Below, one piece after another: positions 374-60,574 of a DNA stretch of 64,000 nucleotides. The position numbers and the translations under genes were made by a program. The stretch spans positions 62,001 to 126,000 of the forward strand of contig JAAOMT010000034.1 in assembly GCA_016748015.1 (NCBI GenBank). The letters run 5' to 3'. Source of the DNA: Geosiphon pyriformis uo1. Taxonomy: Eukaryota > Fungi > Glomeromycota. Each line of letters starts with the position of its first letter. Positions within the stretch are counted from its first letter, which is position 1. The notes below the pieces were generated by a model, which had not been told where the DNA came from, searched no databases, and saw only the letters and a list, made by a program, of their open reading frames with translations.

Positions 374-2243
374 TTATTTTTCTCTTTTAAAATTAAGCTT
401 TTGTAATAATTTTTAATAAACTATCTAATAATATAACTAAACAGTATTTAAATACTAAATATAACCAATAAGTTACTTTGTAATATAATATTAAATTATT
501 ATTTTTCACAAATTTATTTATTTGTTAAAGAGTTTTTCTGTTAAATATTTGTTTATTATTATCTATATATAATATTTATAAGTTCAATTTTTTACCAAAT
601 TTAAAAAACCAGTATGTTAATAAAAGTTTTTTTTTATGTTGTAAAAATTTTTGGTATTTATTCTCTAATGTTTGATTCTATAGTTAAGTTGTTTAAAACT
701 TTTTTGACTTTTTTTTAATGTTTGAGTATTGAAATTTTTCTTGTTTAAAACCAAATAAAGTTAAAAATATTCAGTTTTAGTTAAATTGTTTTAAATAATT
801 GTTGTAAAAACTTTAGAATTTTGTTTAAAAGATTTATAACAAAATTGTTTTAAGCTTTTTTTACTAGTTTTTTAAGAATATATATTTAATTTCTGTAATT
901 CAAATTTTCTATAAACAGACTGTGTTTAACAATAATAATTAGTTCCAAATTTTATGGAATATTTTTGAATTTGACCAATAAAATTTGTGTTTTTAGTTAA
1001 AATATAATTAATAACAATTTTTATGTTGTGTAATAAAGTTTTAAATAATTTCTATATATATATATAACTTTCTTCAAAATTTTGTCTTTTAATTGTAGTT
1101 TATAAGTTTTATTGTCAAAAACTTTATGTATGTAGAATAATCTGTTTTATTTTAGATCAAATTTTCTATTTTATTATTTTTCTGCTTTAATACAATATAA
1201 CAATATTTTGTTTTCAATCTTAAATTTAACTAGTTGATTAAGTAGACAATTATTATGTTTTTTTTGTTATTTTTAAGAATTACTAATATTGTTAGCTATT
1301 GTTTTATAATTGTTTTCCAGTGTTTTTATGAGTTAATATGTTTTTTAGTATAATATGACTTTAAAGTTTTTTTTAATAATTGTTTTTATTAAAAAAAAAG
1401 ATATTTTTAATTTAATAGACAATATGGCTTTTTTTGTATACTAATTTAAATAATATAAATTATGTAGTATTTTGCTTCAATATTCAATATGTAAATAATA
1501 CTAAAAATATAAATAAGTCTTATTTTTGTGCATTTTTATAACTTATTTTTGTTAATACTTTACACAATATTTGATTAAATTGTTTTATCAATTTATTTGT
1601 TTGAAGATAATATAATAACAATAAAAGTCATTTTATTTCAAATTATTGGCTTAATTTTGTAAGAATACTGTTAACAAAATGTATTTTTTAATCAAACAAT
1701 AACTCTTTTGAACATCTATATTAGCATATTAAATCTTAATATACAAACTTAGTTATTGTTTTAACATTTGCTATATAAATAGTTCAGACTTTTGGTTATT
1801 TAATAAAATAGTTTATGATTATAACAATATATTAATTTTTTTTAAAAGTAATTGAAAAAAGTTCAACCAAATTAATTTTAATTATATTAAATAAATTTTT
1901 AATTAAAATAAATTAAAATAGTTTAATTGTTCTGGCTTCATTTTTTCTTTGGCAAAAGTTATAATTATAAATATATTCGAAAATATTTTTGTATATTGTT
2001 GACTAATAATATAAATTAATTGTTTTTTTTAAAGTAGTATTTTTATTAAAGTGTTTAATAGTTGGTTTAAAATACATGTTAAACAAGATAGTTTTTTTTA
2101 GTATTTTTTATAACTTATTATAATATAGTATGGTTTTAGTATTTTTATTAATATAAATTTTTATTGTAAATAAAATAGTTTTAGACTTGTTTTTAAATAA
2201 TACTTTGTTTCTGTTAAGATAATTTTTTTTCAAATTAAAGTGT

Positions 2244-3262
2244 TGTTACTTGAGTAAAAAAACCAATCCAAAGTTATGAAGAAACATGACCAAAATGTGA
2301 TATAACACAGAATAGCATGCAATAATGTTGGATAACGTGTTATAACATAGAATAACATATTATAATGCAGGATAACACAGAATAACATGTAATAACATCA
2401 GATAACATGTTATAACATAGGATAACTAGCAATAATGTAAAAAAACAAAGCAATAACAGAAATAACAAAGCAATAGCTAGCAATAGTGAGACAATTGAAA
2501 GCAATCCTGTAAAACCAAAAGAATGTATAAAAACAAGTAGTTGTAGAAGTGAGAAAAGACAGACAGATAGATACAAACCTCTAAACAAGAATTAAATATC
2601 CATACTCCTTCATTATTTATTATCTTCCCTATTTTATCTTCTGAAATAAACCAATTATTAAAGAAATCAGAATCACAAATTCATGTTCTCAAACTTTGTG
2701 GAATTTACATGAATTAATCTTTGTCTCGTACCTTCATTCTAGGACAGATGCTCTTAGCATAACTGTCTCAAACTATTAACAATTTGGACCAATTGCTCTT
2801 GATCACAGTAATTGACAATACTAATTTATCTTTTCTTTTCTTTTCTTTTTCTTTCTTTTTCTTTCTTATTTTTTTTTGTGGAGCAGCAACATAGTAAAAT
2901 TGACTGTCTGGGAATAAACTTCATGATAGCCTGGTAAAAGAAGGAAGCTCCCCCTAAGTTTTGGATATTAACATTATTTTGTTAGCTTACTAGAAGGGTA
3001 AAAAAACAATGCCAGACTCTAACAACTGCACTCATTAGCTCAGAGAAGAAAGCTCACATTTACAGAAAATATTGCAATCGACAAAAAACAAACTCTGTGC
3101 CTTATAACCAAAGAATTTAACAGGTAAATTCACATTCAGGAATAGACCTTCAGAGACTGATAATCAAGACTAAGCCAATAAAATTACATGGAAGATGCAT
3201 CTCCAATAATTGAGAGCACTAAACATTACCAGTTCCATTACTCACCAAGTTTATCCATAACA
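2244..3262 (+). repeat. 5' LTR of A
   Basis: TGTTAC...CATAACA; direct repeat of 11323-12375. Confidence 0.96.
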
Positions 3263-3264
3263 TT

Positions 3265-3280
3265 TGGTGCTCCCTGTGAA
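3265..3280 (+). promoter_or_regulatory. Primer-binding site TGGTGCTCCCTGTGA (also C ~24432, F ~50067, eroded in E ~47085)
   Basis: TGG start 2 nt after the LTR end. Resembles the complement of elongator tRNA-Met or tRNA-Ile(UAU) 3' ends; the exact tRNA cannot be determined here. Confidence 0.85.
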
Positions 3281-3289
3281 GTTATAAAT

Positions 3290-6200
3290 TTACAGAGACA
3301 GAACATCTCCAAAAATACACAAAAGTGGTGACTATTGGAACAATAAAAAAAGACCACTCCTTATACAGAAAAGCACTATTTTAATACTTTCAAAAAGATC
3401 TAGAAATATCAGCAGAAACCACTTATGCAAAAAGTGATTTTTGTAACTATATTAACACAAAAATCGACTGCTTGTTAGGCTGTACAACTGATATAGGAAG
3501 ACTTGGAGAACAAATCCATCAAAGCTTATTAGGGTACTTAACAGCCATGACTATTCAAGCAATTGCTGAAACTCTGCACATAATCGATACAGACATTAAA
3601 TATTACATAGCACAACAATTTTCTTAAGTACAACAACCAGTGGAATCTGACCCTGAGGAATATGAAGATGAAACCAACAACTCCGTAACTGCCCAAGCCA
3701 AGTCCATGGTCAACAAAAAACCAAGGTTCTTCTCCCCAACAACTCCATCATACCATCAGACACTCCAAAGTAAAATTGTATTCAACCCACCCCCGGAAAC
3801 CCAGTCAAAAACATCACAAACTCCTAAAAATCCACACCCTTGGAATCAACACAGTTGGACCAAATTACTAGGAGAATATGGATCACTGTTTGGAAATCTT
3901 ATTCCAGCAGCCAGTCAAACAGAAGGAAACCCATCAACTTGGAAACAGCCACCAGCACAAAACTTAGCAGAATTAGCATCTTCCCTGATGGAAAAAACAG
4001 CTATCTTACAACCTATTAGTTCAAGCAACAAAGGAAAGCAACCAGCATTAGCACCTAAAGAACACTTGAATATGTGAACACCAATCCCTTTAAACATAAT
4101 CAGTAACACCCCACCCATTAATTGGATCATGGCTTACTGGGATATTGCTAAATTGGAAAAATTCTCTGGTGAAGAAGATAACGCATATTCTTGAATTGTG
4201 GATGCCGAAAAAGCAATTACTGCTAATGGTTGGAACAATGACTGCACAATTCAGGCACTGCCATTCTTTCTGACTAGAACTGCCAATTCGTGGTACTAGA
4301 GCCTTACAGAGAAGCCTACCTCCTTTACAGAGTTTAAACTTGCATTTCTGCAATACTTCTGTGATCCCAATATGTTAATTTGATTGCAGAATCAATTTAG
4401 CATAATTAAACAAAAAGATCACAAAGCAGTAACTACTTATCTCAGACAATTCAATCAAATCCTTTGTTAAGTATTAGCTATTAAAAGGGACTACTACACC
4501 ATGGCACAAGTTCTTAATCAATTCATTAAAAAATTGCAGAGTAATATTCTAAGATCCATAAGACCCCACCATCCGACCAGTTTACAAGACGCCATCACTC
4601 TTGCCCACAATTTTGAGTCTGCAGAACAAGAAGCAAACCATACCCAAGCCATTAATTTAGCCATTAATAGAACCTTTGACATTAATGCAAAGATAACCCA
4701 ATTGAGTAAGAAACTAACTCAAAAAATTAAGGGATTTTTAGCCAGAACTACAGGAACTTACCAACTATTCCAACAGAGAGAAAATAACAACAACAGCAGA
4801 TATCCATAACAACAGAACTGTCAGCAATAGCAACAACCTTGGAGATCTGATCCCCATAACTGTTACTACTGCCAGAAATCTGAACACATTGCCCATGACT
4901 GCAGAAAGAAGATCATAGACCAAAATCAAGGAAACTCATACCAGCAACTCAGATATTAGCAAAACATGGTACCCTAATATTCCATACTTCAGAATCAACC
5001 ACCCCAATATGCATAACAAGTCCTGTACACTCAACCACCACTCCAGAATTATTATTAACTACTACCAATAATACAAGCAATCCCTCACTATCAAACTTTC
5101 CCTTACAGCCCATCCAAACTTCGAGCTATAGACTATAATCAAGAATGGAGAAATTCCAACAACAATTAGGTGCAAACTAACAGTGGACCATCTCAACCAA
5201 TCCCTCACAGTCCTGCCCAATCTTGACCAACACCAACTGGATACTCGAATCAAGCTTCTTATCTCAGTCTTATGGAAGACCAGAGTTTTGATAAATCTAC
5301 ACCTCTGGAAGGGGGGATGTAGAACGAATCTCCCAATCTTCTAAATAAACAAAAAGCAATATCCTACCAGCCACTATTATTGAAGACACCACCCTAGCCG
5401 CCATATTTTCTTTTGACATCAATAATTTGAACACCCATAGCCTTTTTAGTGGAGCAGCCATCAATCAGAATAAACCAATAACAGCTCTATATACCGATGT
5501 CAGAGTCAGAAAAATAGACATTAAATTAATCCTGGATAGCAAATTAGCCAATAGCATAATCACGAAGCAGCTCATGGACCAACTAGGTTACCAAGTAGAC
5601 TATGCTGCTACCACTTGGATCATTACAGCAGATAGAAACACAAAAACCCCAATAGGAAAAATTGATAACTTTCTCTTTGAGATTAATAGAATCCAAATTT
5701 CTATCAAAGTACTTGTTATGAAAGCTACTCAATATTAAGCTCTAGTAGGAAACAATTGGTTGTCAAAAGTTAATGCTACTCTTGACTGGAACACCCAAGA
5801 ACTTCAACTCACATTCAATGGACAGCATGTTCAAGTCCCAGTTACATGTGGACACTTTAAAATCCAACGTACTGAGGAACCTCTTATTGAATTGGAAGAC
5901 ACATCACTGCCACCAACTATTGAGACCTATCAGGTTTTATAGACAGATGATTATCAAACTGAACTACCCCCACCACCAATTTGGGAAGAAAAAGAAAAAG
6001 GCAGAGCCGAAGAAGAACCCCAATTGTCATCACTAGGATACATAACCTTAGACCAAAGAAACTTATTTTACCAATCTCCAAGACTAATATGTGTTGATTG
6101 TGAGAAAAAACTATTCACTATAGGTGCATGTATCAGGGACAACAAAGAATGGCCCACCACCACCAAATATTATTGCAGACCTTGTTTACTGGAAAAATTT

Positions 6201-9115
6201 AGATGACCAAAATGACAAGGCAAGTAGAACAACATGCCATGTCTTGCATGTGGTGAAATTCTACCAAATGAAGGACTCTGGAATGATGTGCCTGACAGAA
6301 GAAGAACATGCAATGAGACTTGTCAATACACTATATTAATTAACAATTGGATACAAAAAGAAACCCCTATCGAGGACGCTTGGAAATGAGCGCTCAACAG
6401 GCTGGATGGTTATCCACACAATGACCATGAAATCTGGAGAATAGTAAACACCAAGGCTGAAGGCGCCACGTCTGAAGAAATACGAGAAATCAAGAACAAC
6501 CCTTGGACACCCGAATATAATGGACCTGACTACTCTGAGAATGATTTCTTTACAAATGATCCAGACACATTTCAGAACTGATATCAGGAATTGGCCCCAA
6601 CTCACAAAAAACAAGAGCAAAGATTGTCCGATTTGAATACCAAACTGTATGATCACTGTTTAATCTTTTGTCACTTCCAGTACTGCAATAAATATGATTT
6701 TATGTTCAATCTGCCTCCAAGAATACTGTTTCCAATCACCAAACTACCTGAGCCCAAAGAAGAAAAGATATTGATTACCGAGAACATGTTATTTCAAGAT
6801 CCAATTGAGAATACTGAAACAGAACAGTATCTCACATATCCTGACCTATTCAAAAAACTAGAACTAAAATGGTACAGTGACAATAAGAAAGGAATCTGCC
6901 CCAAAAGAGCACATGACACCGATGCCAGTTTTAATCTATAATACCCCAGACAATCATCCATCATTATAGCCCTATATTCCCTTATAAAAATAGATCTTAA
7001 GATAGCATTAGAAATTCCTGTTAGTACAATGGTACAAGTTGTCTTTCGATCTAGTCTAGCCAAGAAAGAAATTGACGTAAAAGGAAGAATTATTGATGTT
7101 GGTTACACAGGGAACATCATCGTGATGCTATAGAACAATTCGGACAAACCCTACAAAATAGAATCACAAGAAAAGATTGTCTAAGCTATCTTTCTACCTC
7201 TAGTCAAAATACTTTAATTAATCCCAGTAACAATCTGAGAAGAGTTAGGCTTCACTGCTCAAGGAATCAACAGGTTTGGATCAAGTGGAAGAGGAAACGT
7301 ACCAGTTAATTTCATGGAAGAAGACAGTAACCAGGTAGAATTTATCTACACTAATACCATTATTTCTATTCTCCCATACTGACAATACATCCTCAAAGTG
7401 AATCAAAAGATCCAAGATCAAGTTCTGTTATTTGAAGCCAGTCTTGAAATCTGTTCCCTAGCCAATGTTGTTAATCTATATCTACCAGCCAAAGCCCATA
7501 AACACTTCAAAATTCCCATTTACAACTTGACAGAAGATGTTATTGAAATCTCCGAAGAGACCCTTGTCAGTTCTATATCCACAGATATTCAGAATTCTGA
7601 AAAACCCCAGTCTATTCCAGATTTCACACAATTATTCTTATTCTGTGACATTACCTCACAAGTATAGAATTTGCCAAAAAAAAGTTACTTGTTCACACCA
7701 AAAGAGATCAATAAATTGAATTTAGGAAATTTAAGTACTCTGCAACAAATGCAACTCAAAGTTCTTCTGAATCAGTATGCCGATGTCTTTGCCAGCAAAA
7801 ATGAGTTTGGACGCACCAACATCATAAAGCATCAGATTGATATGGGAGATGCTTGACTGATTAAGCAATGAGCTTACCATGTACTCTCATCTGGCGATAA
7901 CCTAATTAAGCAAGAAGTGCAACAAATGCTTGATAATGGCCTAATCAAAAAATCATTAAGCCCTTGGTCTTCTTCAGTAGTCTTGGTTACCAAGAAAAAT
8001 GGAAAAATGCAATTCTGCGTAGATTATCGAAAACTAAATAGTGTTATGTGAGAAGATAGTTATCCCACTCTCCTCATCCAGGAAATTCTGGACAATCTAA
8101 GAAAAAAAAAATGGTTTTTGTCATTAGATTTAGCAAGTAGTTACTGGCAAGTTGAAATGGACCCCAAAGATAAAAAAAAAACAGCATTTATCACTTGAGA
8201 CAGAAACTTCAAGTTTAATATAATGCCTTTTGGACTTTGTAATGCTCCTGCCATGTTTCAATGCCTGATAGATGTAGTATACAAAGGAATTCTTTGGAAA
8301 TCAATAGTAGTCTACCTAGATGACACAAACGTGTTCTCTGAAACATTCAATGACCATTTGCTTCACCTGCAACAAGTTTTCAAATGCCTTCATAGTGCTA
8401 AATTGAAACTCAATCCCAAGAAGTGCTTCTTTGGAAAAACTGAGTTAAATTCCTTGGACATGTAATTGGCAAGGATGGAGTTAAATCTGATCCAGATAAA
8501 GTACAAAAAGTTAAGAATTTTCTAGCCCCAATCAACCTTAGAAAATTACAAAAATTTCTAAGATTGGCAGAATATTATTGTCAATTTGTCAAAGGTTTCT
8601 CGAACATTACAAAACCACTCCATTAATTGTTGTCCAAATACATACCATACTTGTGGAAAGAAGATCAACAGAAAGCATTTGACTATTTCAAGCAGTGATT
8701 AATCACATCCCCAATTCTAATTTACTCAGATTTTACTAAACAGTTCATTGTCATTACAAATGCCTCAAAAAATGCTTTAGGAGCAGTCTTATCACAGATA
8801 GGACTGAACAATAGAGAACACCCAGTTGTCTACACTAGTTACAACACTAGTCCAGCAGAAAAAAATTACAGCACAACAGATCTGGAATGTCTCACCATTT
8901 ATTGGGCCATACAGACTTGGAAACATTACCTTAGTCAACCATTTAACCTATATACCAATTACAAAGGACTTATTTGGTTACTCAACAATCCATAACTAGA
9001 AAGAAAATATGTGAGATGGAGTACTTATCTGCAACAATTCCCACTCAAAGTTCATTACAAGGAAGGATCCAAGAACACCAATGCCGACAGTTTGTCAAGG
9101 ATGCCACAAACCTAA
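3290..9115 (+). pseudogene. A ORF1: Gag (CCHC knuckle CYYCQKSEHIAHDC ~4861-4902) - aspartic protease (KLILDS ~5522-5540) - Cys-rich domain (~6080-6710) - dUTPase (~6866-7290) - RT (MPFGLCNAP, YLDD ~8313) - RNase H (ends NADSLSRMPQT*)
   Basis: ORF fragments 3640-8465 plus manual translation. Many transition-derived stops and a few frameshifts. Confidence 0.93.
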
Positions 9116-9125
9116 TCCCAGATCC

Positions 9126-10492
9126 ATAGACACACTCACTTATCAATGACTACATCAGTACCTATTAACACTATGTTTCAAGGAGATATTATCTCAACAA
9201 GAACAAAGTACTATATGAAACAAGCCCAAAATTATTTTATTTAAGACAACCAACTATATCAACAAGAACACTGAAACCATTCTATCTCACAACAATTAAT
9301 CAAGGACAGTGAAAAAGAAACTATACTATATAATATGCACTTAGATCCGATGTCAGGACACTTTAACAAAGATGCTACCCTCGAAAGAACACTAAACTTA
9401 TACTATTGGCCAATGATGTATAAAGACATTTTCGAATACATGCTCAATTGTGACACATGCCAGTGAAAAGGAGAAGCAAGATCAACAGAACCATTTCGAC
9501 TCATTTCAGTTGGAAATCTATTTAATAGAATTGGGATTGATTTGGTTGGTCTTCTCTCAATTACATTCAAAGAAAATTAGTATATTGCTGTAGCCATTGA
9601 TTATCTTACAAAATGGCCAGAAGCCAGAGCAATTCAAGTGGCTGATGTCAAAACAATAGCCGAGTTCATACATCAAGACTTAATTTGCCAACATGGGTGT
9701 CCGAAAGAATTGTTATCTGATCAAGGAATGCATTTCATCAATAATATGTTAACAGAATTAAGCCAACAATTTGGTATAAAACATCTTTTATTGTCATCAT
9801 ACTACCCACAAACTAACAGACTAGTAGAATGGTTTAACCAAACACTGTGTAAAGCACTAGCAAAAATAAGTCAAAAAAATGAACAAGAATGAGACCTATT
9901 CATATCTTCAGTACTCTTTACATACCAAACACTAAAGCAAAATATGACACACTTTACACCATTCAAACTAGTCTATGGAAAGAAAGCTATGTTATCTATC
10001 GAACAAAAAATATTGTCCTATTCAACAGAAACAATCACTAAAGAGAATTTTAAAGCTACCTTGTACCACAAAATGTACCAGCTAATGGAAACATTAGAAA
10101 ACAATTGAAGAACAGCAGCTGATAACATTAGTAATGCTCAAAAACGACAAAAAAAAAGACATGATAAATGTCTACTAGAACAACCAATGGAATTCAAGAT
10201 TGGAGACCAAGTACTGTTACATCATACAAAAGCTGAGAAACAGTGGAGTGGAAAGTTTGACCCAAAGTGGGATGGTCCATTCTACATACACAAAGCATTA
10301 AGAAATAGAGCTTACAAATTACGATTGGAAGACAGGATTTTAAAGAAAATAGTGCATAGAAATTGGTTAAAAATTTATTATGCAAAACAGGAATCATCGT
10401 CATCAGTACCTCAACTAGGAACACAAATTTCATTAATCAAACCAGAAGATATACCACAAGATCTGAAACCAATTATCATCATTGAAATGTAG
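9126..10492 (+). pseudogene. A ORF2: integrase (HHCC zinc finger, IGIDLVG/LLSDQG core, GPF/SH3-like tail)
   Basis: ORFs 9638-9892 and 10187-10492 (KWDGPFYI). Begins at an ATA, probably eroded ATG, 10 nt after the RNase H stop. Confidence 0.92.
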
Positions 10493-10572
10493 ACAACAGG
10501 CAGCAAATTAAATTGGAAAATTCAAATATATATAGCATCCAAAAAGCAGCAAAAAATGATAAAAATTTCAAC

Positions 10573-11307
10573 ATGGACCTTTCAGATCAAATTTTAAAAT
10601 TATCTAAACAATTATTTGAAACAATTCAAAAATTGACATCTCAAATAGAAATAACAATTGATAAAAAAAAGATATGGTACAAAGATAAGAGCAGGAGAGG
10701 GAAGGACGAGAGTTCAATTAAAACTAAACATTCCTTCTCCTACCCACCACCCAAAAGGCAATGTTGGAGAAAAAATTGCCTTCAGATGAGAGATGGAAAA
10801 GAAGGAGGCAAAGAATGAGAAAAAGATTATAAAAGAAGATACTTGGTCCCTGAGCTCAAAGAAATAAAACAAATTTTAGCTCATGGGACTGAACTCTCCA
10901 AAACAAGGGAGTGGACACTTGACAACACTCAGAAATGGAAAAAAAGACTTCCTCCAGCTTATTGGTTCTACAAAATTGGAGAACAGCTTGACTTAAAAAC
11001 ACCATATGAAGACCTCAACCAGAAAATGTTCAACAAAGAAGCAATATAACAAGTAGAAAAATTTGTAGGAAAAAACAACCTAACCCTACATTACAAAGCA
11101 ATATACCAACTATATGCTGCCTTCTAACATTGCCCAAACATACTACTAAACAGATCTATGAAAACCATAACAGTTAACAACATAGGACGAATAACCAATC
11201 AACAGTTCAAAGACCTACAAAAGGCAATACTTGAGACAACAATTGAACATTACACAAACAAAGCCACGATAGCAGATACATATGGTTTTGCAGAAGCTCA
11301 ATTTTAA
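10573..11307 (+). pseudogene. A ORF3: unknown ~244 aa protein (MDLSDQILKLSKQLF...FAEAQF*)
   Basis: One reading frame from ATG 10573 to TAA 11307 with a few internal transition stops. Homologous frames in C, F and G. Confidence 0.8.
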
Positions 11308-11319
11308 AAAAAAGAGGGA
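11306..11319 (+). promoter_or_regulatory. Polypurine tract of A
   Basis: aaaaaaaagaggga followed by 'taa' and the LTR start TG. Confidence 0.9.
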
Positions 11320-11322
11320 TAA

Positions 11323-12375
11323 TGTTACCTGAGTAAAAAAACTGATCCAAAGTTATGAAGAAACATGACCAAAACATGACATAACACAGAATAGCATACA
11401 ATAATGTTGGATAATACATTATAATGTAGGATAATGTGTTATAATGCAGAATAACACAGAATAGCATGCAATAACATAGGATAACACAGAATAACATGTA
11501 ATAATGTCAGATAACGTGTTATAACATAGAATAACTAGTGATAACATAGAAAAACAAATCAATAACAGAAATAACAAAGCAATAGTTAGTGATAACGAAA
11601 CAATTGAAAGCAATTCTGTAAAACCAAAAGAATGTATAAAAGCAAGTAATTGTAGAAGTGAGAAAAGACAGACAGATAGATACAAACCTTTAGACAAGAA
11701 TTAAATATTCATACCTCTTCATCATTTATTATCTTCCCTATTTCATTTTCTGAAATAAACCAATTATTAAAGAAATCAGAATCACAAATTCATGTTCTCA
11801 AACTTCGTGGAATTTACATGAATTAACTTTTGTTTTGTACCTTTGTTCTAAAACAAATGCTCTTAGCATAACTGCCTTGAACTATTAACAATTTGGACCA
11901 ATTGCTCTTGATCACAGCAATTGACAATACTAATTTATCTTTTCTTTCTTTTCTTTTCTTTTTCTTTTTTTTTTTTCTTATTTTTTTTTTGTGGAGTGGC
12001 AACATAGTAAAATTAACTGTCTGGAAATAGACTTCATGATAGCCTGGTAAAAGAGAGAAGCTCCTCCTAAGTTTTGGATATTAACATTATCTTATTAGCT
12101 TACCAGAAGGGCAAAAAGACAATGCCAAACCCTAATAACTGCACTTATTAGCTCAAAGAAAAAAGCTCACATTTATGAAAAACGTTGCAATCGATGAAAG
12201 ACAAACTCTGTGCCTTATAACCAAAGAATTCAATGAGTAAATTCACATCCAAGAATAGCCCTTCAGAGACTGATAATCAAGACTAAGCCAATAAAATTAC
12301 ATGGAAGATACATCTCCAATAATTAAGAGCACCAAATGTTACCAGTTCTATTATCCACCAAGTTTATTCATAACA
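11323..12375 (+). repeat. 3' LTR of A
   Basis: Direct repeat of 2244-3262 with extra U3 repeat units. Confidence 0.96.
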
Positions 12376-23599: not shown

Positions 23600-24429
23600 T
23601 GTTACTTATAGAATATAGGAAGTATATTAGCATAAATTAGCCAATCAAAAGTAGTCATAGTAGATGTGGAATTCCAGGATTCCTCTCAAGAAGAATCATA
23701 AGATTCCAGGAATTTCAGGATTCTTGTACAAAGAATTACAAGATTTCAGAATTTCAGGATTTCTCTTAAAGAAATTACAGAATTCCAGGAATTCCAGAAT
23801 TCCTGGTGTGAAAAATTGAGAAATTGAGGAATCTCAATTATGTATATATAGCAGTAGCATTACAAAAAAAAAAGACAGATTTTTCAGTTTAGATTTGATC
23901 TAAGCAATCTTTTTATTCACAAATATTAATAAATAATTATTCACTATCTTAATCTATTTCTCACTATTAACACTTCATGTTGATAGTAATTGATACTTAA
24001 CTATATTGGAACAATAGCTTTTAATCACAGCTATTGACAGAATACTAACTTGTAATTGCCTTGGCTTATTTTTTTTATCTTTTTTTTATTTTTTTATTTT
24101 TATTTTGTGTTTACTAATTGATTGAAGATTAAGCACTGAATTATTAATGTTAAGGATAGTCTGGTAAAAAACTTCAAAGGAAGGATATAGAATTGAGAAT
24201 TTAAAGATAGCTTATCAGAAAAGCATCTTTGCCAGATTACTGGCCACTATGCTAAGAAAGAAATTCAATGAAATTGTAATTCCAGAAGGCTACTAAAAGG
24301 CTATTAAATCTCTGTTCATTATATAAAAGACTCAACTAAAACCTTCAGAAACCAACATCATAATATCAATTAAGCACCAAGTTACAAGTTTGTTATTTGT
24401 TTTAAGACTCTAAATAATTACCTATAACA
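23600..24429 (+). repeat. 5' LTR of C
   Basis: TGTTAC...TAACA; repeat of 32762-33617. Confidence 0.95.
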
Positions 24430-32118: not shown

Positions 32119-32748
32119 ATAGAAATTACTGACAACATATACACACTGATACAACAACTCTTCCAACTGATTCAACAACAGAATATGAAAATTACTATCA
32201 ACTAACAAACCATTTAATACTGAAATACCAGGAAAATATGCTAATACAAAGTACAGAAGAAACCAGAAAGCACTGTCAACAAAATAATTCTAAAAGTAAA
32301 ATTGGCAATAGAAGAGCCAACAAGTGTCACTTCATATCAAGAAGTAACTAAAGAAACTTGGAAGTAGTGGATACAACAATTTCCAAGAAACTTTTGTTAT
32401 TTCTATTTGAGACAACATCTAAATATCTGAAACTTATATACAGATAAGACAAAGCGATTATTCAATCCAAAGATATTACAACAACTTGAACAATTTGTGA
32501 GAAAAAACAATCTAACCACATAAGCATGAGTCATCTATTGATTACAAATTGGATTTCAAGACTGACCCAAAATCTTATTCAATCCAGTAATAGACTCTAT
32601 TACCATTAACCAAATGAAAAAAATAACCAATATCCAATTTAAAGAATTACAGAACAAAATAACACAAGTAATTCTTGAAAAAAAAGTTTAAAAAATACTC
32701 AAAGACAAAGAATTAAAATTAGGAGATCTCAACAGAGCTCAATATTAA
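32119..32748 (+). pseudogene. C ORF3: unknown ~210 aa protein
   Basis: (M)EITDNIYTLIQQLFQ...LNRAQY*; homologous to ORF3 of A, F and G. Confidence 0.75.
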
Positions 32749-32761
32749 AAAGAAAAAATAA

Positions 32762-33617
32762 TGTTACTTATAAAATATAGGAAGTATATTAGCATAAATT
32801 AGCCAATCAGAAGTAGCTGTAATAAATGTGAAATTCCAGAATTTCTCTTAAGAGGAATCACAAGATTCCAGAAATTTCAGGATTCTTATACAAAGAATTG
32901 CAGGATTCTAGAATTCCAGGATTTTTCTTAAAGAAATTGCAGGATTCTAAGAATTCCAGAATTTCTGGTGTGAAAAATTGAGAAATTAAGGAATTTTAAT
33001 TATATATATATAGCAGTAGCATTAGAAAAAAAAAAAACAGACCTTTTAGTTTAGATTTGATCTAAGTAATCTTTTTATTCACAAATATCAATAAATAATT
33101 ATTCACTATCTTAATCTATTCCCCACTATCAACACTTTATATTGATAGTAATTGATACTTAATCATACTAAAACAATAGCTCTTAATTACAACTATTGAC
33201 AGGATACTAACTTGCAATTGCCTTGGCTTATTTTCTTTATCTTTTCTTTATTTATTTTTTTTCTTTATTTTTTTTTTGTGTTTATTAATTGATTAAAAAT
33301 TAAGCATTAAATTATTGATGTTAAGGATAACTTGGTAAAAGACCCCAAAGGAATGGTATAGAATTGAGAATTTAAAGATAACTTACCAGAAGAACATCTC
33401 TGTCAAATTACTGGCCACTATGCTGAGAAAAAAATTCAATAGAATTGTAATTCTGGGAAGCTACTAAAACACTATTAAATCTCTGTTTATTATACAAAAA
33501 ACTCAACCAAAATCTTCAAATCATAAAAACCTTCAGAAACCAACATCATAATATCAATTGAGCACCAAGTTATGGGTTTGTTATTTGCTTTGAAACCCCA
33601 AATAATCACTTGTAACA
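32762..33617 (+). repeat. 3' LTR of C
   Basis: TGTTAC...GTAACA. Confidence 0.95.
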
Positions 33618-35271
33618 GTGTTAATTTTTTTAATCAATTAGTAAATTCACAATAAACAAAAAAAAAAGAAAAGAAATAAAGAAATAAAGAAAATAATAAA
33701 AAAAGAAATAAAAAGATAAGCCAAGACAAGAAAGAGTTAGTATTCCATTAATAGCTGTAATCAAGAACTATTGGTCTAGTGTTTAAGTATTAATAGCTAT
33801 TAACATGAAATGTTAATAGTGGGCAATAGATTATAGTTGAAATAAGTATTTTATTAATATAAAATGTTGGAACTTGAGAATTTTAGCTGGGAAATTCTGC
33901 TTTTTTTGCTTCTAATATTATTGTTATATATACATAATTTTTGTTATACAAGATTTTTTGAATTTTTTAATTCCTTATTCTTTGAATTTCTTAATTCTTT
34001 AGCCTAAAATTCTGTAATTTCTTGAGAGGAATTCTGGAATTCTGAAATTTTGCAATTCTTTATACTGGAATCTTGCAATTTCTCTAAGAAAAATCCTGGA
34101 ATTCCACTTTTACTGTGTTCTATTCTAATTGGCTAATTTGTGTACTAATATATAATTCTTATATTTTATGAGTAACATTGCTTTTTTTAATGCTACTTGC
34201 TTTGATTTTGGTTTTGGATCCTTTTTTTCTGGTATATCATGTGCTAAAAAAAGTCTTTTAGTTGTTCAAAATAATTTATTTATTAATATTTATCTGGTAT
34301 TTTCAGAATGCTTTTTAGAGCTTTTGGCAAATTAAGTGTTAGATATTGTGTAAAAATTAAGTTTTGTGAATCTGGTACTTCTGGCACCTATTTCTCAATC
34401 TTTTTTTTCTACTGTATCTGTATTATTAAATTCGAATTTGACTTACTTATATTATTTGTTTCTTTTCTTTTAATTGTAAATAAAAAGATTTCAGATTTGG
34501 GTTTAAATAGATCAAAGATTTTAATCACCAAAATAGGTGCTTGAAATCGAAAATAGTGGTTCTTAAAGTTTTAATTAGTTTAATTTTAATAAGATTGAAT
34601 CAATTGTGTTCTGCTTGGGCTCTTCAATGCTCTTATTATCTTAATAACTGATTTAATATAGAAGTTTGTTACATGTAATGTTTAGGGTCTTAATGTTTCT
34701 GCAAAGCAAAAAAATGTTGTTTATTGGCATAAGAATTTGGGTAATATGGTTTTTATTATTAAAGAAACAAAATTAAAATTTAATGTTAGACTATAGATTG
34801 TGAATAAATTTGATAGAATGTGAATTTTTATGTTTGGTTTAAATAAAAGTTTTTTTAATGCTAGTATGATTATTGTTATAAAAAATTCTCTGGTTTACTA
34901 TATTTCTAAGATAAAAAAAGTTTCTGATTAGATTATTTTAGTGTAGTTTTTTTTAAAGACAAGCTTTTAATTATGATTTTGAGTTTATATGTTAATGTTT
35001 TTACTAAAATTAGGTTTGTTTAGGCTGCAAAAGTAAATTCTTATATTGCTAAAGCAGTTAACTTCAGTATTTTTGTTGTCTTAAATAGAGATTTCAATAA
35101 AAATAAGCCTAAAAAAAGCACAAATTTCAAGTTTTGTTTGGATTTAAAATTGATCAATTTGTTTAATAAGCATCTATTGATCAAAGTTTTCATTTAAAGT
35201 AATTCGAAAAATATTAAAAAGATCATAAATTACATTTTCATAAGTAAAAATTTGTTGTTAATAGTAGCCAG

Positions 35272-36232: not shown

Positions 36233-39200
36233 ATGGTGACAAAAACCCCTAATCTTACTGTTCTTGAATTCTGCCATGCTATTTACACACAAAATCAAAG
36301 TGATCTTGGATTACCAGAAGGGTGTTGTCCAGCAGAATCTGCCCTTACTTATTATATCAACGCCAGAATAAATTATCATATAAGAAAGGAAGAAGAACCA
36401 CATGATGCAAAACTTGGATTGTATAGAGAATTATCACAATACACTACAAAAGAAGTAGCAGTAATAGCTGCAACTATTGTCAAAATCCATCGAGAAATTG
36501 AGCAATACGCCAACAAAAATTTTCCAATATCCACAGAAAACACTAAGAAATGTGCCAACAAAACCAAAGAAAATTTAGAAACTAATCAGAAAAGTAACCA
36601 GCAAAAACTAGGAACACCAGCTCAAACACCAAAGAAAACTGTCACTCAATCAATAAAGAAACAACGTATTTATTCACCAGAAGATAAATTATACCATTTT
36701 TTACCAGAAAATAAGATACAAATTCTATTAGGAGCTGCATTATCATCAACATCAACTCCACAAACACCAAGAACTCCTAGTTATACTGATAAAATTAAAC
36801 AACATAACTGGGGAGACATACCAATTACAGGAGGATANNNNNNNNNNNNNNNNNNNNAAACTAATCAGAAAAGTAACCAGCAAAAACTAGGAACACCAGC
36901 TCAAACACCAAAGAAAACTGTCACTCAATCAATAAAGAAACAACGTATTTATTCACCAGAAGATAAATTATACCATTTTTTACCAGAAAATAAGATACAA
37001 ATTCTATTAGGAGCTGCATTATCATCAACATCAACTCCACAAACACCAAGAACTCCTAGTTATACTGATAAAATTAAACAACATAACTGGGGAGACATAC
37101 CAATTACAGGAGGATATTCATCACTATTTCAAAACCCTCTTTTTCAGCCAAAATTTAGAATGGGGTTTGAAAACCGTGAAGAGGAGTCTGAATCGGAATC
37201 CGAAAAAGAGACCAGTGAAAAAACAATCACAAGACCAGTCATTAAAACAAGCAGCCAATCCAGAAACCAAGAAACTCGTGATCAAGAGGAAGAATCGGAT
37301 ATAAGAGAAGCCACCTTTAGGAATGCTCAAGGAAATATCATCCCACCTTCTCTTAGACCAATAAGCCCACTAGCAGAAAACGGCAATGAAATAACCACAC
37401 CATACATTGCAAGACTAACAGATTTTTCAGGAGAGGAAAAAGAAACGGACGTGCACACATGGCTCAGAGAAGCACAAAAAGCCATCCAGGCAAATAACTG
37501 GAATGACCAAAGAGCAATTCAAACATTACCTTTCTTCCTGAAAGGCACAGCCAACTCATGGTATCAAAGCCTGGAAACAAAACCCATGAGCTTCGCCGAA
37601 TTTAAAAATGCACTCCTGGAGTATTTTAGCGACCCAAACGCCGTAATCCAACTACAGAACAAATTCAATACTATTAAGCAAAATACCAGTGAAACTGTCA
37701 CCCAATATCTTGCTCGATTTAATCGAATTCGCCGTCAGATTGAAGTGATTGAACAAGGATACTACACTGATCCTCAGGTTTTAAATCAGTTTATTAGAGG
37801 ATTAAAAAGCAGCATTTTAGGAAGAGTACATCCTGCCCACCCTAATTCCTTACCAGAAGCCGTTACGCTCGCCAAAGCCCTTGAATTGGCTGAGAAAAAA
37901 GCTAACCATAGTCAAATGGTTAACATGGTAATGAAGAAAAATAAGACAGAAACATTAGAGAAAAGAGTAACGCGATTAGGAGAGGAACTCTCTAAGAAAA
38001 TAGAAAGTTATCTCATCCCGGATCTGAAAAAAAATACATACCAACCACCCCAAAGACACAGCCAGGAAGTCAGCAACAGTCGAAATAATCGCTTGTCGCA
38101 CTAGGAATTCAGAACAGAAATGCATGTCTGCCATTTTTGCAAATGCGTAGGACATTTGATTAGTCAATGTCGAATGCGAATGATGCAGGAAGCACGCAAA
38201 AATAATTACTATGCACCACCCCAAATGCTCAGAAACCAGTACACACCAATACTACGCCAATATCCTACCACATATCAAAATCAAGGAGCTTACCAGCAAC
38301 AGCCCATGATAGCCAACCTGAATTGGCGTCCCAAGACCCGAAATCAGCCCATGTGGAACCAGAACGTGTTGGTTTAGAGGAATTCAAACCACGCTGGAAC
38401 CAATCAGCAAACCAATTCAAACTACCAAAATTATCAACAAACTTACCTTAATATACCAGAAAATCTGATCATCAGAAACAATAATGGTAGAAACATAAAT
38501 AGAACCAAGAATTCCTTCAAATTGAGCCAGACAATACCACCAGCAGTTGCCACCGAAGATAGCAGCCTCGCAGCTATTTTTCCTTTTGAATTAGAGGAAA
38601 ACGAGGCTATGTTCAGTGGAGCAGCATTGGACGAAAAACGCCCAATCACTGCTATGTATACGGAAGCCACTGTAAACAATACCCTAATCAAACTTATCTT
38701 AGACAGCGGATCCGCTGGAAGCATCGTAATGCTTCAACTAGTAAACCAACTGGGTTTCAAAGTTGATTGTGCCGCGACGTCCCAAATCATAACAGCCGAT
38801 GGAAGTATAAAGCTGCCTCATGGTGAAATCGACTTATTTCCTTTTGAAATTAACAGCATAGTAATATCTACAAAAGTATTAGTAATGGATGCTACACAAT
38901 ATTAAGCATTAGTAGAGAATGATTGGCTAACAAAAGCCAACGCCACCCTAGACTGGACCACCCAAGAGCTTCTGATCAATTATAATGGCCACTAGGCCAA
39001 AATTCCAGCCATCTGTGGCCACTTCCAAAAACCCAGCACCAACCAAAGACCTACCTTTGAATTTGAGGAAAATCCAGCACTACCAGCCATTGAAACCTAT
39101 CAGCTTTCTTGGGCTGATGACCAAAGAACAGGACTACCAGCCGTACCAACGTGAACCAGTAAAGAAAGATCCGAATGAAACCAGATAAGTTCACGAAAAA

Positions 39201-42200
39201 ACCACCAGTGACGCAGACCAAAGCTAGAATGCTCGGTTTGCAAGAAGAAACTCTTGTCTATGACTGCGTGCAGCGCACTAGATGAAGACCCAAGAAACCC
39301 CACCCACTACTATTGTAACAATTGTAACAAAGAAAAATACAGTTACCCAGAAAGACACGGAAAATGGAATGAGGAACCATGCCTCGCTTGTGGAGAACTG
39401 TTACCAAGAGGGTGCGACTGGAACAACATATCAGGCAGAGGAGGAACGTGTGATACAACTTGCCAATACACGATCCTCATTTGTGACTGGATAAGAAGAG
39501 GAACACCATTCGAAGCAGCATTCAACAGAATGTTAAAAAGACTACAGCACTACCCACATGACAAGAACGAGTTGTACAACACTGCACAAGCCAAAGTAAG
39601 AGGAGGAACTGCTGAAGAAATATGACGTTGGAAAGAGTCAGCTGAAGTAGCCGATAAAGTTACTAGCTACAACATGTTTGACCCAGTGGACGAATTCCAG
39701 GACTACTACTAACAACTATGCCCCACTTGACAAGAGCAAGAACAATATCTCACCCAAATCAACACTTATCTCTGCAAAAACTGTCTCATCCTGTGTCAAA
39801 ATCAGTGCTGTAAAGAGTGTCAAGATGAAAGGGACTTAGAAAGAAAAATGGAAATTGAGAATCAGCAGTCTCAAAATCAATCAATAAATCAACAAGACTC
39901 ACCTGATGGTCCCAAGTTAGAAAAATTTGTAGTTTATACTGACTTAGAACAGGTAACCAACATCTGATACTTCGACAATGGGCACTTAGGAATAATACCT
40001 GAAAGAGCTCATCCAACTGATGCCGGATTCGATCTACGTTATCCAGAAGACCAATTCACAACATTACCACCCAGGAGCATTACCAAAATCAACCTAAAAA
40101 TAGTGGTTGAAATTCTGCCAGGAATAATGGTTCAAATAACGTCATGATCAAGCCTCGTGAAAAAAAGAATAAGCGTTTAAGGAGGAATAATTGACTCTGA
40201 ATACACTGGAAATTTGATGGTTTTGCTACAGAACAATTCAGAAAAGCCTTATACCATTGAATCTAAGGAAAAAATTGCACAAGCAATTTTCCTACCATTG
40301 GTAAAAATTGGGAAATTTGTGCCAGTAGAAAATCGTGAGGAATTGTCACAAACAACAATAAGAACTTTTGGTTTCGGATCGACAGAAAAAGGAATTAAAG
40401 CAAATTTCGCTGAAACAATAGAGGAAAAAGGCGAAGTAATTAAAAATGAGCAGTTCATTATGCTTCTACCATATGGAAAATCAGAAATAAGAATAAAAAG
40501 GACAATTAAAGAAAAAGACCTAATATTTGAGCCCTACCCAGAAACTTGCCAACAGTTTTTCATAGGACTTACTAACCTTTTTTTTCCAGCTGATAAAGCT
40601 CAATGGATAAAAATTTCTATCGCAAACACCACAGAAGAACCCGTCTACATTCCAGAAGATACCATCATTGGATACCTTGGAACGGAGCTAGAAAACGCAT
40701 CAACACCACAAGAAATTCTAAATTTCCCAGAAATTGCCCTCTACTGTGAACTCACTTCAATAAATTGGCAACAACCATTAGAATGCTATCAATTTACACC
40801 AGAAGAATTGGCCAAATTAAACATTGGAACAATGGATCCTGACCAACAGCGACAGTTAAAAGCATTAATTTTAAAATACTCTGATATATTTTCACGAAAT
40901 GGCGAATTTGGAAGAACCAACTTGGTTCAACACCAAATCTTCACTGGAGACACCAGACCTGAAAAACAATGCACTTACCATGTTCCACCAATGGAGCATA
41001 ATTTTATCAGAGAAGAAGTCCAAAGCATGTTGGAAAAAAGAATAATACAACCATCAATAAGCCCATGGTCCTCACCAGTTGTTTTAGTAAGGAAAAAGAA
41101 TAGAAAAATTAGATTTTGCATCGACTATCACAAACTAAACAGCAAAACAACCAAAGACTTATACCCAATACCATTAATTGACAAAATCTTCGACGTTTTT
41201 GGAGGAGCAAAATGGTTTTCTATACTGGACTTGACCAGTGGGTACTGGCAAGTGGAAATGAACCCAAAGGACAGGCATAAAACAGCATTCACAACACAAA
41301 ATGGCAATTATGAGTTCAATGTAATGTTATTTGGATTAACAAACACTCCTGCAACATTTCAAAGACTAATGGACATAATTTACTCTGAAATCCTGTGGCA
41401 ATCCATTGTTGTCTACTTGGATGATACAAATGTTTTCTTGTCAAAATTCACGGATCATCTCCAACATTTACAACAAGTTTTTGAGAGATTGAAACACATT
41501 GGACTTAAACTAAATCTAGAAAAATGTTTCTTTGGGAAAAATGAACTAGCATTTTTAGGACACATAGTTGGAAAAGATGGAATAAAACCAGATCCATCAA
41601 AAATAGACAAAGTGAAAAATTTTCCAGTACCTTGAAATGTTTCAGAAGTTAGAAGCTTTTTAGGACTCGCATCTTACTACCGCCACTTTGTAGAAAACTT
41701 TTTAAACATCGCCAAACCCCTTAATTACCTACTATCTAAAAATGTGAAGTTTGAATAGACTGAAGCACAACAAAAAGCTTTTGAGTACCTTAGACAAAAG
41801 CTCATTGAATCACCAATAATGATCTATCCGAATTTCAACAAAAAATTCATTTTGGCCACAGATGCCTCTGGAACTAGACTTGGAGCCATTCTGTCATAAA
41901 AAGATGATAATGAAAGAGAACGTGTAATTGCTTATGCCAGCAGAAGTCTCAGTACAGCAGAACAAAACTATGCAGCACATGAACTTGAATGCTTAGCAGT
42001 AGTCTGGAATTGTGTTCATTTTGACACATATTTACGGTACCAACCTTTTGAGATTACAACAGATCATAGAGGTCTGGTCTGGTTAAATAACAAGAAAGCG
42101 CTAAAAGGAAAATACGCTAGATGGTCACAAACGTTAGCACCATACAATTATATTATCAAATACAAAGAAGGTATTAAAAATGCTAATGCTGACTATTTGT

Positions 42201-43872: not shown

Positions 43873-43988
43873 ATCTTAGATCACAGCAAAAATGATTTAA
43901 CAACCATAAAAACGCATGCAAAAAATTCCAAAATAGCAGTCAAAATTAAAACAATGATACTTATTCCAAAAAACATCAACAATATAAC

Positions 43989-44007
43989 AGATGTGTATAA
44001 GAGACAG
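43989..44007 (+). other. Tn5 mosaic end / Nextera adapter AGATGTGTATAAGAGACAG (library artefact)
   Basis: Exact 19/19 match to the known ME sequence. Confidence 0.97.
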
Positions 44008-44076
44008 GTAATATAGAAATCAATAAAGAAATTAACTTCAATTTCGATGGAGCTCAATCTTGAAAGGAGGGGATAA

Positions 44077-57786: not shown

Positions 57787-58422
57787 ATAGAAATACCAGA
57801 CCATATTTACACTTTAGCTCAACAATTGTTTCAAGCTTTAAGTCAACAGCAAGTAAACATAAAAATTATCATCAACAACCAAACAATTTGTTATTGAAAC
57901 ACCAAACAAAAAGAAAAAAATACACCATACCAGTGATCACAAAAACAATCAATAAACTAATTAGATAAAATAATTGAAAAAGTAAAAAACACTTTTGGAA
58001 AGACAACCATCATTATTTCAACAGAAAAACTAATGAAAAAAAATTGGAATCAATAGATAAACCAACTTCCAATACCATTTTGCTACTATCAATTGGGACA
58101 AAAAATTGATATTCAAAAGTTGTATCTTGACAAATCCAAGAGAATTTTCAATCAAGAGATAATCTGGAACATTAAAGACATTATTAAAAAGAAAACAAAT
58201 TTAACACTACATATTAGGACCATTTATTAACTATACACTATATTTCAAAACTACCCAGAAGTATTGTTACACTCTGACATAGAAACAATAACCATCAACC
58301 AATAGGAAAGAATAAACAACTTACAAATTGAAGAAATAAAGAATAGGATGAAACAGATGCTACTTAAAAAAGAAGTATTTGACATAATTTAAAATGAGAA
58401 TTTTGACAGAGCTCAATATTAA
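57787..58422 (+). pseudogene. F ORF3: unknown ~211 aa protein
   Basis: (M)EIPDHIYTLAQQLFQ...FDRAQY*. Confidence 0.78.
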
Positions 58423-58435
58423 AAAGAAAAGATAA

Positions 58436-59324
58436 TGTTACTTATAAAAAGAAAAAACAGATATAAAAAAAGTAGACCAATAGAAGAGTAGTAATCAGCA
58501 TGTAAGCATATTGCTTAGCAATATGAAACAATGTCAAAAATCACAGCACATTGCTTAGCAATATAGAGCAATATTAGTAACCACAACACATTGCTCAGCA
58601 ATATGGAGTGATATTAGAAAATTAAGGCACATTGCTCAAGAAATCATAGCACATTGCTCGAGAATGTGAGCAATCTCATAGAACATCAATTATGTATATA
58701 TAGTAGTAGTATTAGAAAAAGAAAAAACAAACCTCTTAGTTTAGATTTGATCTAAGCAACCTTCCATTCACAAATATCAAATAAATAATTATTTACTATT
58801 TCAATTCACTCTCCATTATCAACAATTCATGTTGATAGTAATTGATACTTAAACCACATTGGAACAATAACTCTTGATCATGACTATTAATAAGATACTA
58901 ACATTCATTGCCTTGACTTGTTTCTTTATTTTCTTTTTATTTTCTTTTGTTATTTTTTTTGTTTTACTAATTAATTAAAGAAAAAAAGTGCTAAATTATT
59001 GATGTCAAGGATAGCCTGGTAAAAAACTCCAAAGAAAGGATATAACATTGAAAATTTAAGAATAGCTTACCAGAAAGGCATCTCTGCCAGATTTCCGGCC
59101 ACCATGCTGAGAAAAAAATTCAACAGAATTGTAATTCCAAGAAACTACTGAGAAGACAACAATTGAATCTCTGTTTATTATACAAAAAACTCAACAACAC
59201 AACTTTCAGACTATTAAAACCTTCAGATTAGCCAAACCTTCAAAAACCAATATCATTGTATTAATTAAGCACCAAGTTATGGATTTGTTATTTGTTTTGA
59301 GACCCCAAATAATCAACTGTAATA
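58436..59324 (+). repeat. 3' LTR of F
   Basis: Repeat of 49275-50064 with an expanded U3 array. Confidence 0.94.
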
Positions 59325-59938
59325 GTGTCTACTCTTATTCCTGGGTCTTTTACCAGTGCTATATCCTGAAATCAGTAACTCAGCACTTTAATCCTTTTAA
59401 TTAATTAGTACACAACAAAAAATAACAAAACAAAAGAAAAAAAAATAAAAGAAAATAAAAAAATAAACCAAGGCAATGAATACCAGTATCCTGTTAATAG
59501 TTATAATCAAGAGCTATTGTTCCAGTTTAGTTAAGTATCAATTACTATTAACATAAAGTGTTAATAATAGGGAGTGAATTTGAGATATTAAATAATTATT
59601 TATTAATATTTGTGATATGGAATGTTGCTTAGATCAAATCTAAACTGAAAGGTCTGTCTTTTCTGCTTCTAATGCTACTGCTATATATACCTAATTTATG
59701 TTCTACAAAATTGCTCACATTTTCGAACAATGTGCTATGATTTTTTAAACAATGCTCATATTGCTAAGCAATGTGCTCTAATTTTTTAACATTGCTTCAC
59801 ATTGCTGAGCAATGTGCTGTAATTCCTGATATTGCTCCATATTGCTAAGCAATGTGCTTATGTGCTAATTACTACTCTCTTATTGGTCTGCTATTTTTCT
59901 ATATCTGTTTTTTTTATGAGTAACATTATCTTTTTCTT

Positions 59939-60574
59939 TTAATATTAAGCTCTGTCAAAATTCTTATTTTAAATTATGTCAAATACTTCTTTTTCAAGTA
60001 GTATCTGTTCCACCCTACTCTTTATTTCTTCAATTTATAAGTTGTTTATTCTTCCCTATTGGTTGATGGTTATTGTTTCTATGTCAGAGTATAACAATAT
60101 TTTTGGGTAGTTTTGAAATATAGTGTGTAATCAATAAATGGTCTTAATATATAGTGTCAAGTTTGTTTTTTTTCTAATAATGTCTTTAATATTTCAGATT
60201 ATTTTTTGATTGAAGATTCTCTTGGATTTGTTAAGATATAACTTTTAAATATCTACTTTTCATTCCAATTGATAGTAACAATATGGTATTAGAAGTTGGT
60301 CTATTTATTGGTTCCAATTTTCTTTCATCAGTTTTTCTGTTGGAACAATGATAATTATCTTTCCAAAAGTGTTCTTTACTTTCTCTATTATTTTATCTAA
60401 CCAGTTTATTGATTGTTTTTGTAGTCACTGGTATGGTGTACTTGTTTCTTTTTGTTTGGTGTTTCAATAACAGATTGTTTGGTTGTTGATAATAATTTCC
60501 ATGTTTACTTGCTGTTAACTTAAAGCCTGAAACAATTGTTAAGCTAAAGTGTGAATATGGTCTGGTATTTCCAT
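59939..60574 (-). pseudogene. G ORF3 (ATG intact: MEIPDHIHTLA...)
   Basis: Reverse complement of the F ORF3 region, same 636-nt span. Confidence 0.78.

Follow-up and report, generated by a model that had tools for sequence, protein, structure and literature searches.

ORF3 of dUTPase-bearing Ty3/gypsy elements in Geosiphon pyriformis, a conserved helical accessory protein that diverges as one block with its own U3 repeat array

In a 64,000-nucleotide stretch of the Geosiphon pyriformis genome (contig JAAOMT010000034.1; hereafter the window), the third open reading frame (ORF3) of nested LTR retrotransposons and the adjoining U3 repeat array were found to diverge as one sharp block against near-identical pol and R-U5, which is the new observation of this study. 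Judged from its substitution pattern, ORF3 behaves as a real gene under purifying selection, and each ORF3 type appears to be passed on as a unit together with the U3 repeat type belonging to it. We propose, at a probability of roughly 40%, that ORF3 is a nuclear, type-specific DNA-binding protein that would activate or de-silence its own LTR via the U3 repeats. The positions of the features are summarized in Table 1.

Table 1. Positions of ORF3 copies, U3 arrays and associated features (numbering of the window; L001 is a metagenomic locus)
Feature	Position	Strand	Remarks
Element A	2244..12375	+	LTR-gag-PR-dUTPase-RT-RH / separate IN / ORF3-LTR; LTRs 89.5% alike; TSD GTGT
Element B	19140-12376 and 2243-1	-	Split by A
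ORF3 of element A (type A)	10573..11307	+	244 codons, 3 in-frame stops
ORF3 of element B (A-like type), very decayed	402..840 (about)	-	tblastn homology
ORF3 of element C (type C)	32119..32748	+	209 codons, 11 stops, start decayed to ATA
ORF3 ends of element D (type D)	43954..44063	+	Middle missing in assembly
ORF3 of element F (type F)	57787..58422	+	211 codons, 7 stops, start decayed to ATA
ORF3 of element G (type F)	59939..60574	-	211 codons, 13 stops
Exact 19-nt putative Tn5/Nextera adapter end at break in ORF3 of D	43989..44007	+	Assembly artefact
GAGCTCAAT-type motif and polypurine tract of A	11296..11322	+	Source of AQF* end
Candidate internal promoter of ORF3 of A (TATA-like box)	10527..10535	+	~46 nt upstream
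U3 array, 3' LTR of A	11401..11576	+	10-bp period; 5' LTR copy 2297-2467
U3 array, 3' LTR of C	32864..32963	+	GGAATTCC-like units, 39-40-bp period; 5' copy 23668-23803
U3 array, 3' LTR of F	58505..58617	+	Palindromic CACATTGCT-N-AGCAATGTG, 40-bp period; 5' copy 49372-49429
U3 array, 3' LTR of G (F type)	59728..59858	-	F inserted further along this LTR
LTR X, C-type U3 array	33618..34177	-	Continues at 23600-23312; C inserted inside
Diverged block of C vs F/G (ORF3 + PPT + U3 array to LTR TATA box)	32127..33000	+	
RT-RH/IN split	9115-9150 (A), 30650 (C), 42220 (D), 56315 (F), 62040 minus (G), L001:772-800		

Decayed dUTPase-bearing elements, nested in one another, make up the window, with the order Gag-PR-dUTPase-RT-RH, IN, ORF3, PPT and LTR. 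LTR pairs, 4-bp target-site duplications, a TGG primer site, the PPT and the gene order place them in Ty3/gypsy (Metaviridae), and Pfam profiles in element D matched Retrotrans_gag/Ty3_capsid, Asp_protease, dUTPase, RVT_1 and SH3_Tf2-1. The LTR pairs are 85–97% alike, their differences being almost all transitions (103 of 107 in A), and the observed/expected ratio of CpG is 0.03–0.44. Three of the four insertions with a target-site duplication are in antisense orientation within an element that shares their U3 type (A in B, C in LTR X and F in the LTR of G), with GTGT-like 4-bp duplications at 2240-2243/12376-12379, 23597-23600/33618-33621 and 49271-49274/59325-59328, respectively; the fourth, D, carries the duplication CCAG, and its target is an unrelated LINE-like repeat. 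A stop right after the last motif of RT-RNase H, followed by a separate integrase ORF, is conserved in 6 of 6 elements and is an unusual arrangement. Between protease and dUTPase a Cys/His-rich stretch of about 300 codons was seen in A (5950-6850) and D (39050-39900). Element E (46400-49000), a further LTR element with a 12-bp U3 repeat (46487-46546), breaks off after no more than a gag-like region, and no ORF3 was seen in it. Element B has about 15% G+C against 33–38% in the nested element, and has undergone strong C-to-T decay over time, affecting several dinucleotide contexts. LTR elements are reported to make up 41.2% of the G. pyriformis genome (PMC11952901), and arbuscular mycorrhizal (AM) fungi to methylate transposable elements (TEs) and to produce TE small RNAs (10.1101/2021.03.30.436303).

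A preliminary description of the window had located ORF3 as a sense-strand frame in A, C, F and G, with both ends also in D. The place and sense orientation of these frames, between the integrase stop and the PPT, were confirmed, and so was their homology (tblastn E values of 1e-8 to 1e-17 from A, and down to 7e-28 from the intact relative P0076), but none of the four is open (3–13 in-frame stops). A sixth copy, in element B, which is split by A, had been overlooked. All ORF3 copies in the window are dead relics. Of the 34 stops in A, C, F and G, 33 correspond to Q, R or W in one or more intact relatives, a pattern such as C-to-T/G-to-A decay would give. In D both ends are kept, but the roughly 190 codons missing between them are not a natural structure. 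The break coincides with a 19-nt sequence that we take to be a Tn5/Nextera adapter end (one match in the window against 0.01 expected), and the gene models P0042 and P0067 show the N-terminus of D followed by a whole D-type ORF3; the gap is therefore an assembly artefact, and a natural deletion is ruled out. Further assembly artefacts in D are the duplicated stretches 36579-37116 and 42400-43065, which flank N runs. The protein motifs quoted in the preliminary description are present, except that its C-terminal AQ(F/Y/S)* arises on translation of a DNA motif, GAGCTCAAT, directly 5' of the PPT. The metagenomic locus L001 keeps this DNA motif in another frame, with the protein end ELNLEE, and the protein P0071 ends in ELSLEE, which would likewise be an other-frame reading of the pre-PPT motif; this rules out AQ(F/Y/S)* as a conserved protein motif. 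The spacer lengths of the PPT motif vary across the window elements.

That ORF3 is conserved at the protein level had also been claimed, and this was borne out by dN/dS values of 0.31–0.36 in all five between-family pairs of the window (pN/pS = 0.50–0.64, bootstrap ranges below 1); for comparison, integrase dN/dS was 0.20–0.27 between A, D and C/F/G. In each of these five pairs the ORF3 frame had the lowest dN/dS of the six frames, with codon alignments built in the tested frame, which favours it; for the close pair F-G, the ORF3 value was 0.39 and other frames were lower. The values to L001 were 0.55–0.82 in four saturated comparisons, three of which had ranges including 1. When C and F were aligned as plain DNA, five of the seven gaps were multiples of three, and the remaining two were of 1 and 2. 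Every window element with a 3' end (6 of 6) carries ORF3 or its ends.

Intact relatives are on record for A (P0002, 244 aa, 80% identity over 244 aa) and for F/G (P0076, 211 aa, 63–64% identity, 63% to F over 211 aa). All 36 proteins matched by the ORF3 of A are hypothetical proteins of G. pyriformis. A library search with ORF3 gave 50 matches, and among the ten looked up eight were from the host and two were metagenomic. Word-based and profile-free library searches, which have a limited reach, gave P0066/P0075 and P0071 as the only relatives outside the host. One of the two metagenomic proteins is encoded on L001, which has the RH stop, the separate IN, an intact 230-codon ORF3 and the PPT motif as in the window elements. 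In viral contigs neither an ORF3 relative nor the PPT motif was found. In the ESM Atlas, the top match of P0066 was an unnamed Mucoromycota cluster of 98 members (0.94, with recognition below the trust line), which is a lead to a wider ORF3 family, and residues 100–244 of P0002 gave no usable match. The host has at least five ORF3 types (A, C, D, F and the N-terminal half of P0012) with 17–34% identity among host types, and 44% for C vs F; dozens of ORF3 copies are on record, and intact proteins for at least three types. Many hypothetical proteins of the host (P0012, P0041-P0043, P0046, P0062 and P0088) are chimeric gene models, joining ORF3 pieces to gag, LTR or other repeats, and P0012 combines two different ORF3 types.

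The block of ORF3 and U3 was seen on comparing C, F and G, which share a pol lineage (IN tree, 100/99), the C and F types being sisters in the ORF3 tree (85/80). Between C and F/G, transversions amounted to 3–4% at the 3' end of IN, 2% in the IN-ORF3 spacer, 18–19% in ORF3, 24–26% in the U3 array and 4–6% in TATA-R-U5, with 1–6% along pol, and F vs G differed by 0.6–4% throughout. Both borders of the block are sharp, the rise lying within the first ORF3 codons and the drop at the LTR TATA box. Four-fold sites gave the same contrast (C-F: 6/13 in ORF3 vs 4/63 in IN, p = 0.001; C-G: 5/10 vs 2/53), indicating that the block is older than the surrounding pol and not merely faster at the protein level. 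Since the gag region is partly intermediate between C and F (6–12% transversions), these elements appear to be mosaics of several ages. The block represents a single event, C vs F/G. Within it the palindromic U3 units were altered in concert and in register between C and F, and no crossover was seen at the PPT junction between ORF3 and U3 in six elements, a small sample. These observations lend indirect support to the guesses of the preliminary description that ORF3 may bind nucleic acids or counteract silencing. The main objection to own-LTR activation is that ORF3 and U3 are neighbours at the 3' end of the RNA and could be moved together by an established mechanism of reverse transcription: one strand transfer to another RNA with a switch back in IN would carry both without any functional link.

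The U3 motif follows the ORF3 type in the six elements having both (A+B, C, F+G and D), with a 10-bp unit in A/B, GGAATTCC-like units in C and LTR X, CACATTGCT-N-AGCAATGTG in F/G, and a weak 23-bp period without a TRF array in D. LTRs of A, C, D, F and G share 55–162 8-mers within a type and 1–8 between types. Palindromes exceeded shuffles in 6 of 12 U3s (0–12 of 200 shuffles reached them) and in none of four downstream LTR controls; the enrichment was absent in the other six U3s (A 3', D 5', D 3', X, E and L001). The arrays abut the LTR TATA box. A further TATA box lies 41–46 nt upstream of ORF3 in five of seven elements (A, B with an approximate start, C, F and G), which represent two lineages, and comparable motifs occur 1–9 times per 8 kb of internal sequence; D is without a TATA box before ORF3, and L001 has one only at −126. 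A cluster of U3 motifs before ORF3, as in the foamy-virus internal promoter, was looked for and not seen.

As to the protein itself, the preliminary description had suggested a soluble, helical and non-env product without a described relative, and the analyses agreed on each count. The top 19-residue hydropathy was 0.39–1.29 in all six intact proteins, with no signal-like N-terminus and 0–3 cysteines, and AlphaFold2 modelled the full ORF3 (39 sequences, pLDDT 79) as a small N-terminal helix-hairpin, a disordered stretch at 40–50 and a helical core; the core alone (133 aa, 30 sequences) reached pLDDT 90 and pTM 0.83. No ORF3 match was obtained at threshold from Pfam, PHROGs or NCBIfam, nothing below E 0.5 from the PDB by sequence, and none at E 0.001 or better from Foldseek against PDB and viral structures, and no clear match to a described env or accessory family emerged. 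The best Z scores of VIA-align were 5.5 for the full model and 6.1 for the core (noise line 8), and 4.3 on a second look. The models thus matched no known fold, and the absence of a match does not make the ORF3 fold new. From sequence and models, ORF3 can be described as a conserved soluble helical accessory protein without a Pfam family match. An R/K/H-x2-5-PY motif, which is the PY-NLS consensus (PMC2408616), occurs in five of the six intact proteins within the single disordered stretch of the model, and the C type is without it. The two metagenomic ORF3 proteins are acidic overall (pI 5.4 and 5.9).

In the core, a DNA-binding element may be present, although the matches stay at noise level. 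The family DUF1016_N (PF17761) was singled out for a presumed likeness to the core, and hhalign against an 11-sequence DUF1016_N profile aligned 60 columns (score 18.9, E 0.027, probability 1.8%), above all 40 column shuffles (maximum 18.2) and the reversed control (14.4). Single-sequence comparison of ORF3 with DUF1016_N found nothing, and Pfam scans of ORF3 did not list PF17761. In structure comparison, Spo0J/ParB aligned to the core with Z 5.4 (rmsd 4.7 over 95), below the noise line of 8 and among the few top rows spanning the whole core, and a ParB-parS domain aligned to the full model with Z 4.0, among noise-level fold rows. The first six residues of the presumed DNA-contact helix vary between types and are steady within a type. 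A ParB-like/DUF1016_N helix-turn-helix in the modelled core is thus a lead and not an assignment.

Under own-LTR activation, the TATA box upstream of ORF3 would give a short ORF3 transcript, and the basic, disordered PY motif would mediate nuclear import of the product. Its helical core, possibly with a ParB-like helix-turn-helix and a type-variable second helix, would then bind, probably as a dimer, to the U3 units, which are often palindromic. Binding would activate the LTR or leave cognate copies free of methylation, and unmethylated own-type copies would become accessible, which would explain the nesting. Counted in favour are the selection on ORF3, the ORF3-U3 block, the type-specific repeats, the palindromes, the TATA box and the PY motif, together with the DUF1016_N/Spo0J alignments, the own-type nesting and the CpG depletion, taken as host silencing pressure. 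Counted against it are the single block event, the sister relation of the C and F types, the noise-level helix-turn-helix match, the palindromes absent in half of the U3s, the TATA box missing in D and distant in L001, the C type without PY, the acidic metagenomic proteins and the high, saturated dN/dS to L001. A further step, which we put forward tentatively, is that the ORF3-U3 pairs may be old specificity groups between which pol has been exchanged, ORF3 being a Tas/VANC-like regulator inside Metaviridae.

Among the alternatives, a counter-defence or host-interaction protein, acting for instance against RNAi or a restriction factor, would diversify in an arms race without reading DNA. In this case the U3 repeats would serve host transcription factors, as the variable repeats common in LTRs often do, and ORF3 and U3 would travel together by adjacency alone. 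The right border of the block lies near the U3/R boundary, as strand transfer would place it, no DNA-binding fold is established for ORF3, and two of its relatives are acidic. AM fungi are also described as silencing TEs by small RNAs plus methylation (10.1101/2021.03.30.436303). On the other hand, the PPT junction without a crossover in six elements (again a small sample), the in-register palindrome change between C and F, the PY motif and the own-type nesting are all left unexplained, and we consider a counter-defence role unlikely, if still a serious competitor.

More doubtful is an integration tether or integrase adaptor, which would bind the separate IN, and perhaps the U3 arrays, and steer own-type insertion or package IN. 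Encoded on its own behind the RNase H stop in A, C, D, F, G and L001, IN needs a route into the particle, and A, C and F were each inserted antisense into an element of their type, flanked by a GTGT-like duplication of 4 bp; C and F, moreover, are of one integrase lineage, yet each inserted into its own U3 type. However, ORF3 diverges with U3 and not with IN, and the adaptor guess of the preliminary description loses ground because the ORF3s of C and F are only 44% identical whereas their integrases come from a recent common copy. In addition, the nesting amounts to three events, the C/F match has a one in four chance, A lies about 2 kb from the U3 of B, and D lies in an unrelated repeat.

A self-encoded repressor, binding its own U3 array and dampening the LTR as a copy-number control, would use the same anatomy as the proposed activator, with arrays that abut the LTR TATA box, and self-encoded restriction reportedly exists in yeast Ty1. 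It is nevertheless quite improbable, as these families are highly amplified, with dozens of ORF3 copies in a genome of which LTR elements make up 41.2% (PMC11952901), and a diversifying specificity suits escape better than self-restraint. Finally, an env-like or cell-to-cell movement protein, for which the sense orientation and the env-like place between IN and PPT speak, is barely worth considering given the soluble helical model, the 0–3 cysteines and the lack of an env family match in Pfam; env identity was rejected on the hydropathy of at most 1.29 and the lack of a signal-like N-terminus in six of six intact proteins.

With a different short U3 motif accompanying each of several ORF3 types, the system brings its own candidate substrate. 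Should the pairing prove functional, it would reveal how a retrotransposon came to occupy about 40% of a methylating fungal genome. The VANC/Tas principle would then reach a third kind of mobile element, and the types would make up a small set of orthogonal DNA-binding proteins of a fold without a PDB match. Even if the pairing is not functional, ORF3 is an unnamed helical family that inflates the 'hypothetical protein' set of the host.

Sense extra ORFs between pol and the 3' LTR are a known class, aORF-3S (Vicient and Casacuberta 2020, PMC7264820), and according to that survey most non-env extra ORFs of LTR retrotransposons are without an assigned function. ORF3 has in common with aORF-3S and the bdelloid ORF3s (PMC7264820, PMC5408684) its position, orientation, presence in all copies and gene-like conservation, and the bdelloid carriers are dUTPase-bearing as well (PMC5408684). 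The aORF-3S described there are env-like with TM segments or are enzymes (GDSL esterase, DEDDy exonuclease), whereas the ORF3 studied here appears soluble and helical, lacks a Pfam match and goes together with a U3 array specific to its type. A literature search, which covered mainly open-access main texts, gave nothing on the ORF3 family or on ORF3-U3 pairing in fungal retrotransposons.

Regarding the fold, the weak profile match to DUF1016_N (YhcG N-terminal), in a sensible register of an aromatic-x-IG helix followed by a helix-turn-helix, and the whole-domain match to ParB-Spo0J lie below every threshold; these domains occur in bacteria, joined to a nuclease or CTPase. Regarding the proposed role, two systems are comparable. 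VANC proteins of Arabidopsis VANDAL transposons co-evolve with tandem motifs (Hosaka et al. 2017, PMC5735166; PMC12859917), and resemble ORF3 in that protein types are paired with short tandem-repeat motifs in noncoding DNA of a TE-methylating host (PMC5735166). However, VANDALs are plant DNA transposons (Mutator-like) and the carrier of ORF3 is an LTR retrotransposon, binding and demethylation have been demonstrated for VANC (PMC5735166) and are proposed for ORF3, and no sequence similarity between the two was seen. In foamy viruses, Tas (Bel1) is expressed from an internal promoter and acts on U3 (PMC3185757), and the likeness extends to a 3'-end gene beside the LTR, a candidate internal promoter, a proposed U3 target (PMC3185757) and carriers in which a pol product is made separately from gag (in the present elements IN, as an ORF of its own). 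Foamy viruses, by contrast, are vertebrate Retroviridae with env, and Tas also binds its own internal promoter (PMC3185757), whereas ORF3 has no cluster of U3 motifs before it, gave no structural match in the viral library, and Tas was not listed in its Pfam searches. ORF3 is not a VANC protein and probably not a Tas member, and by analogy it may work like them.
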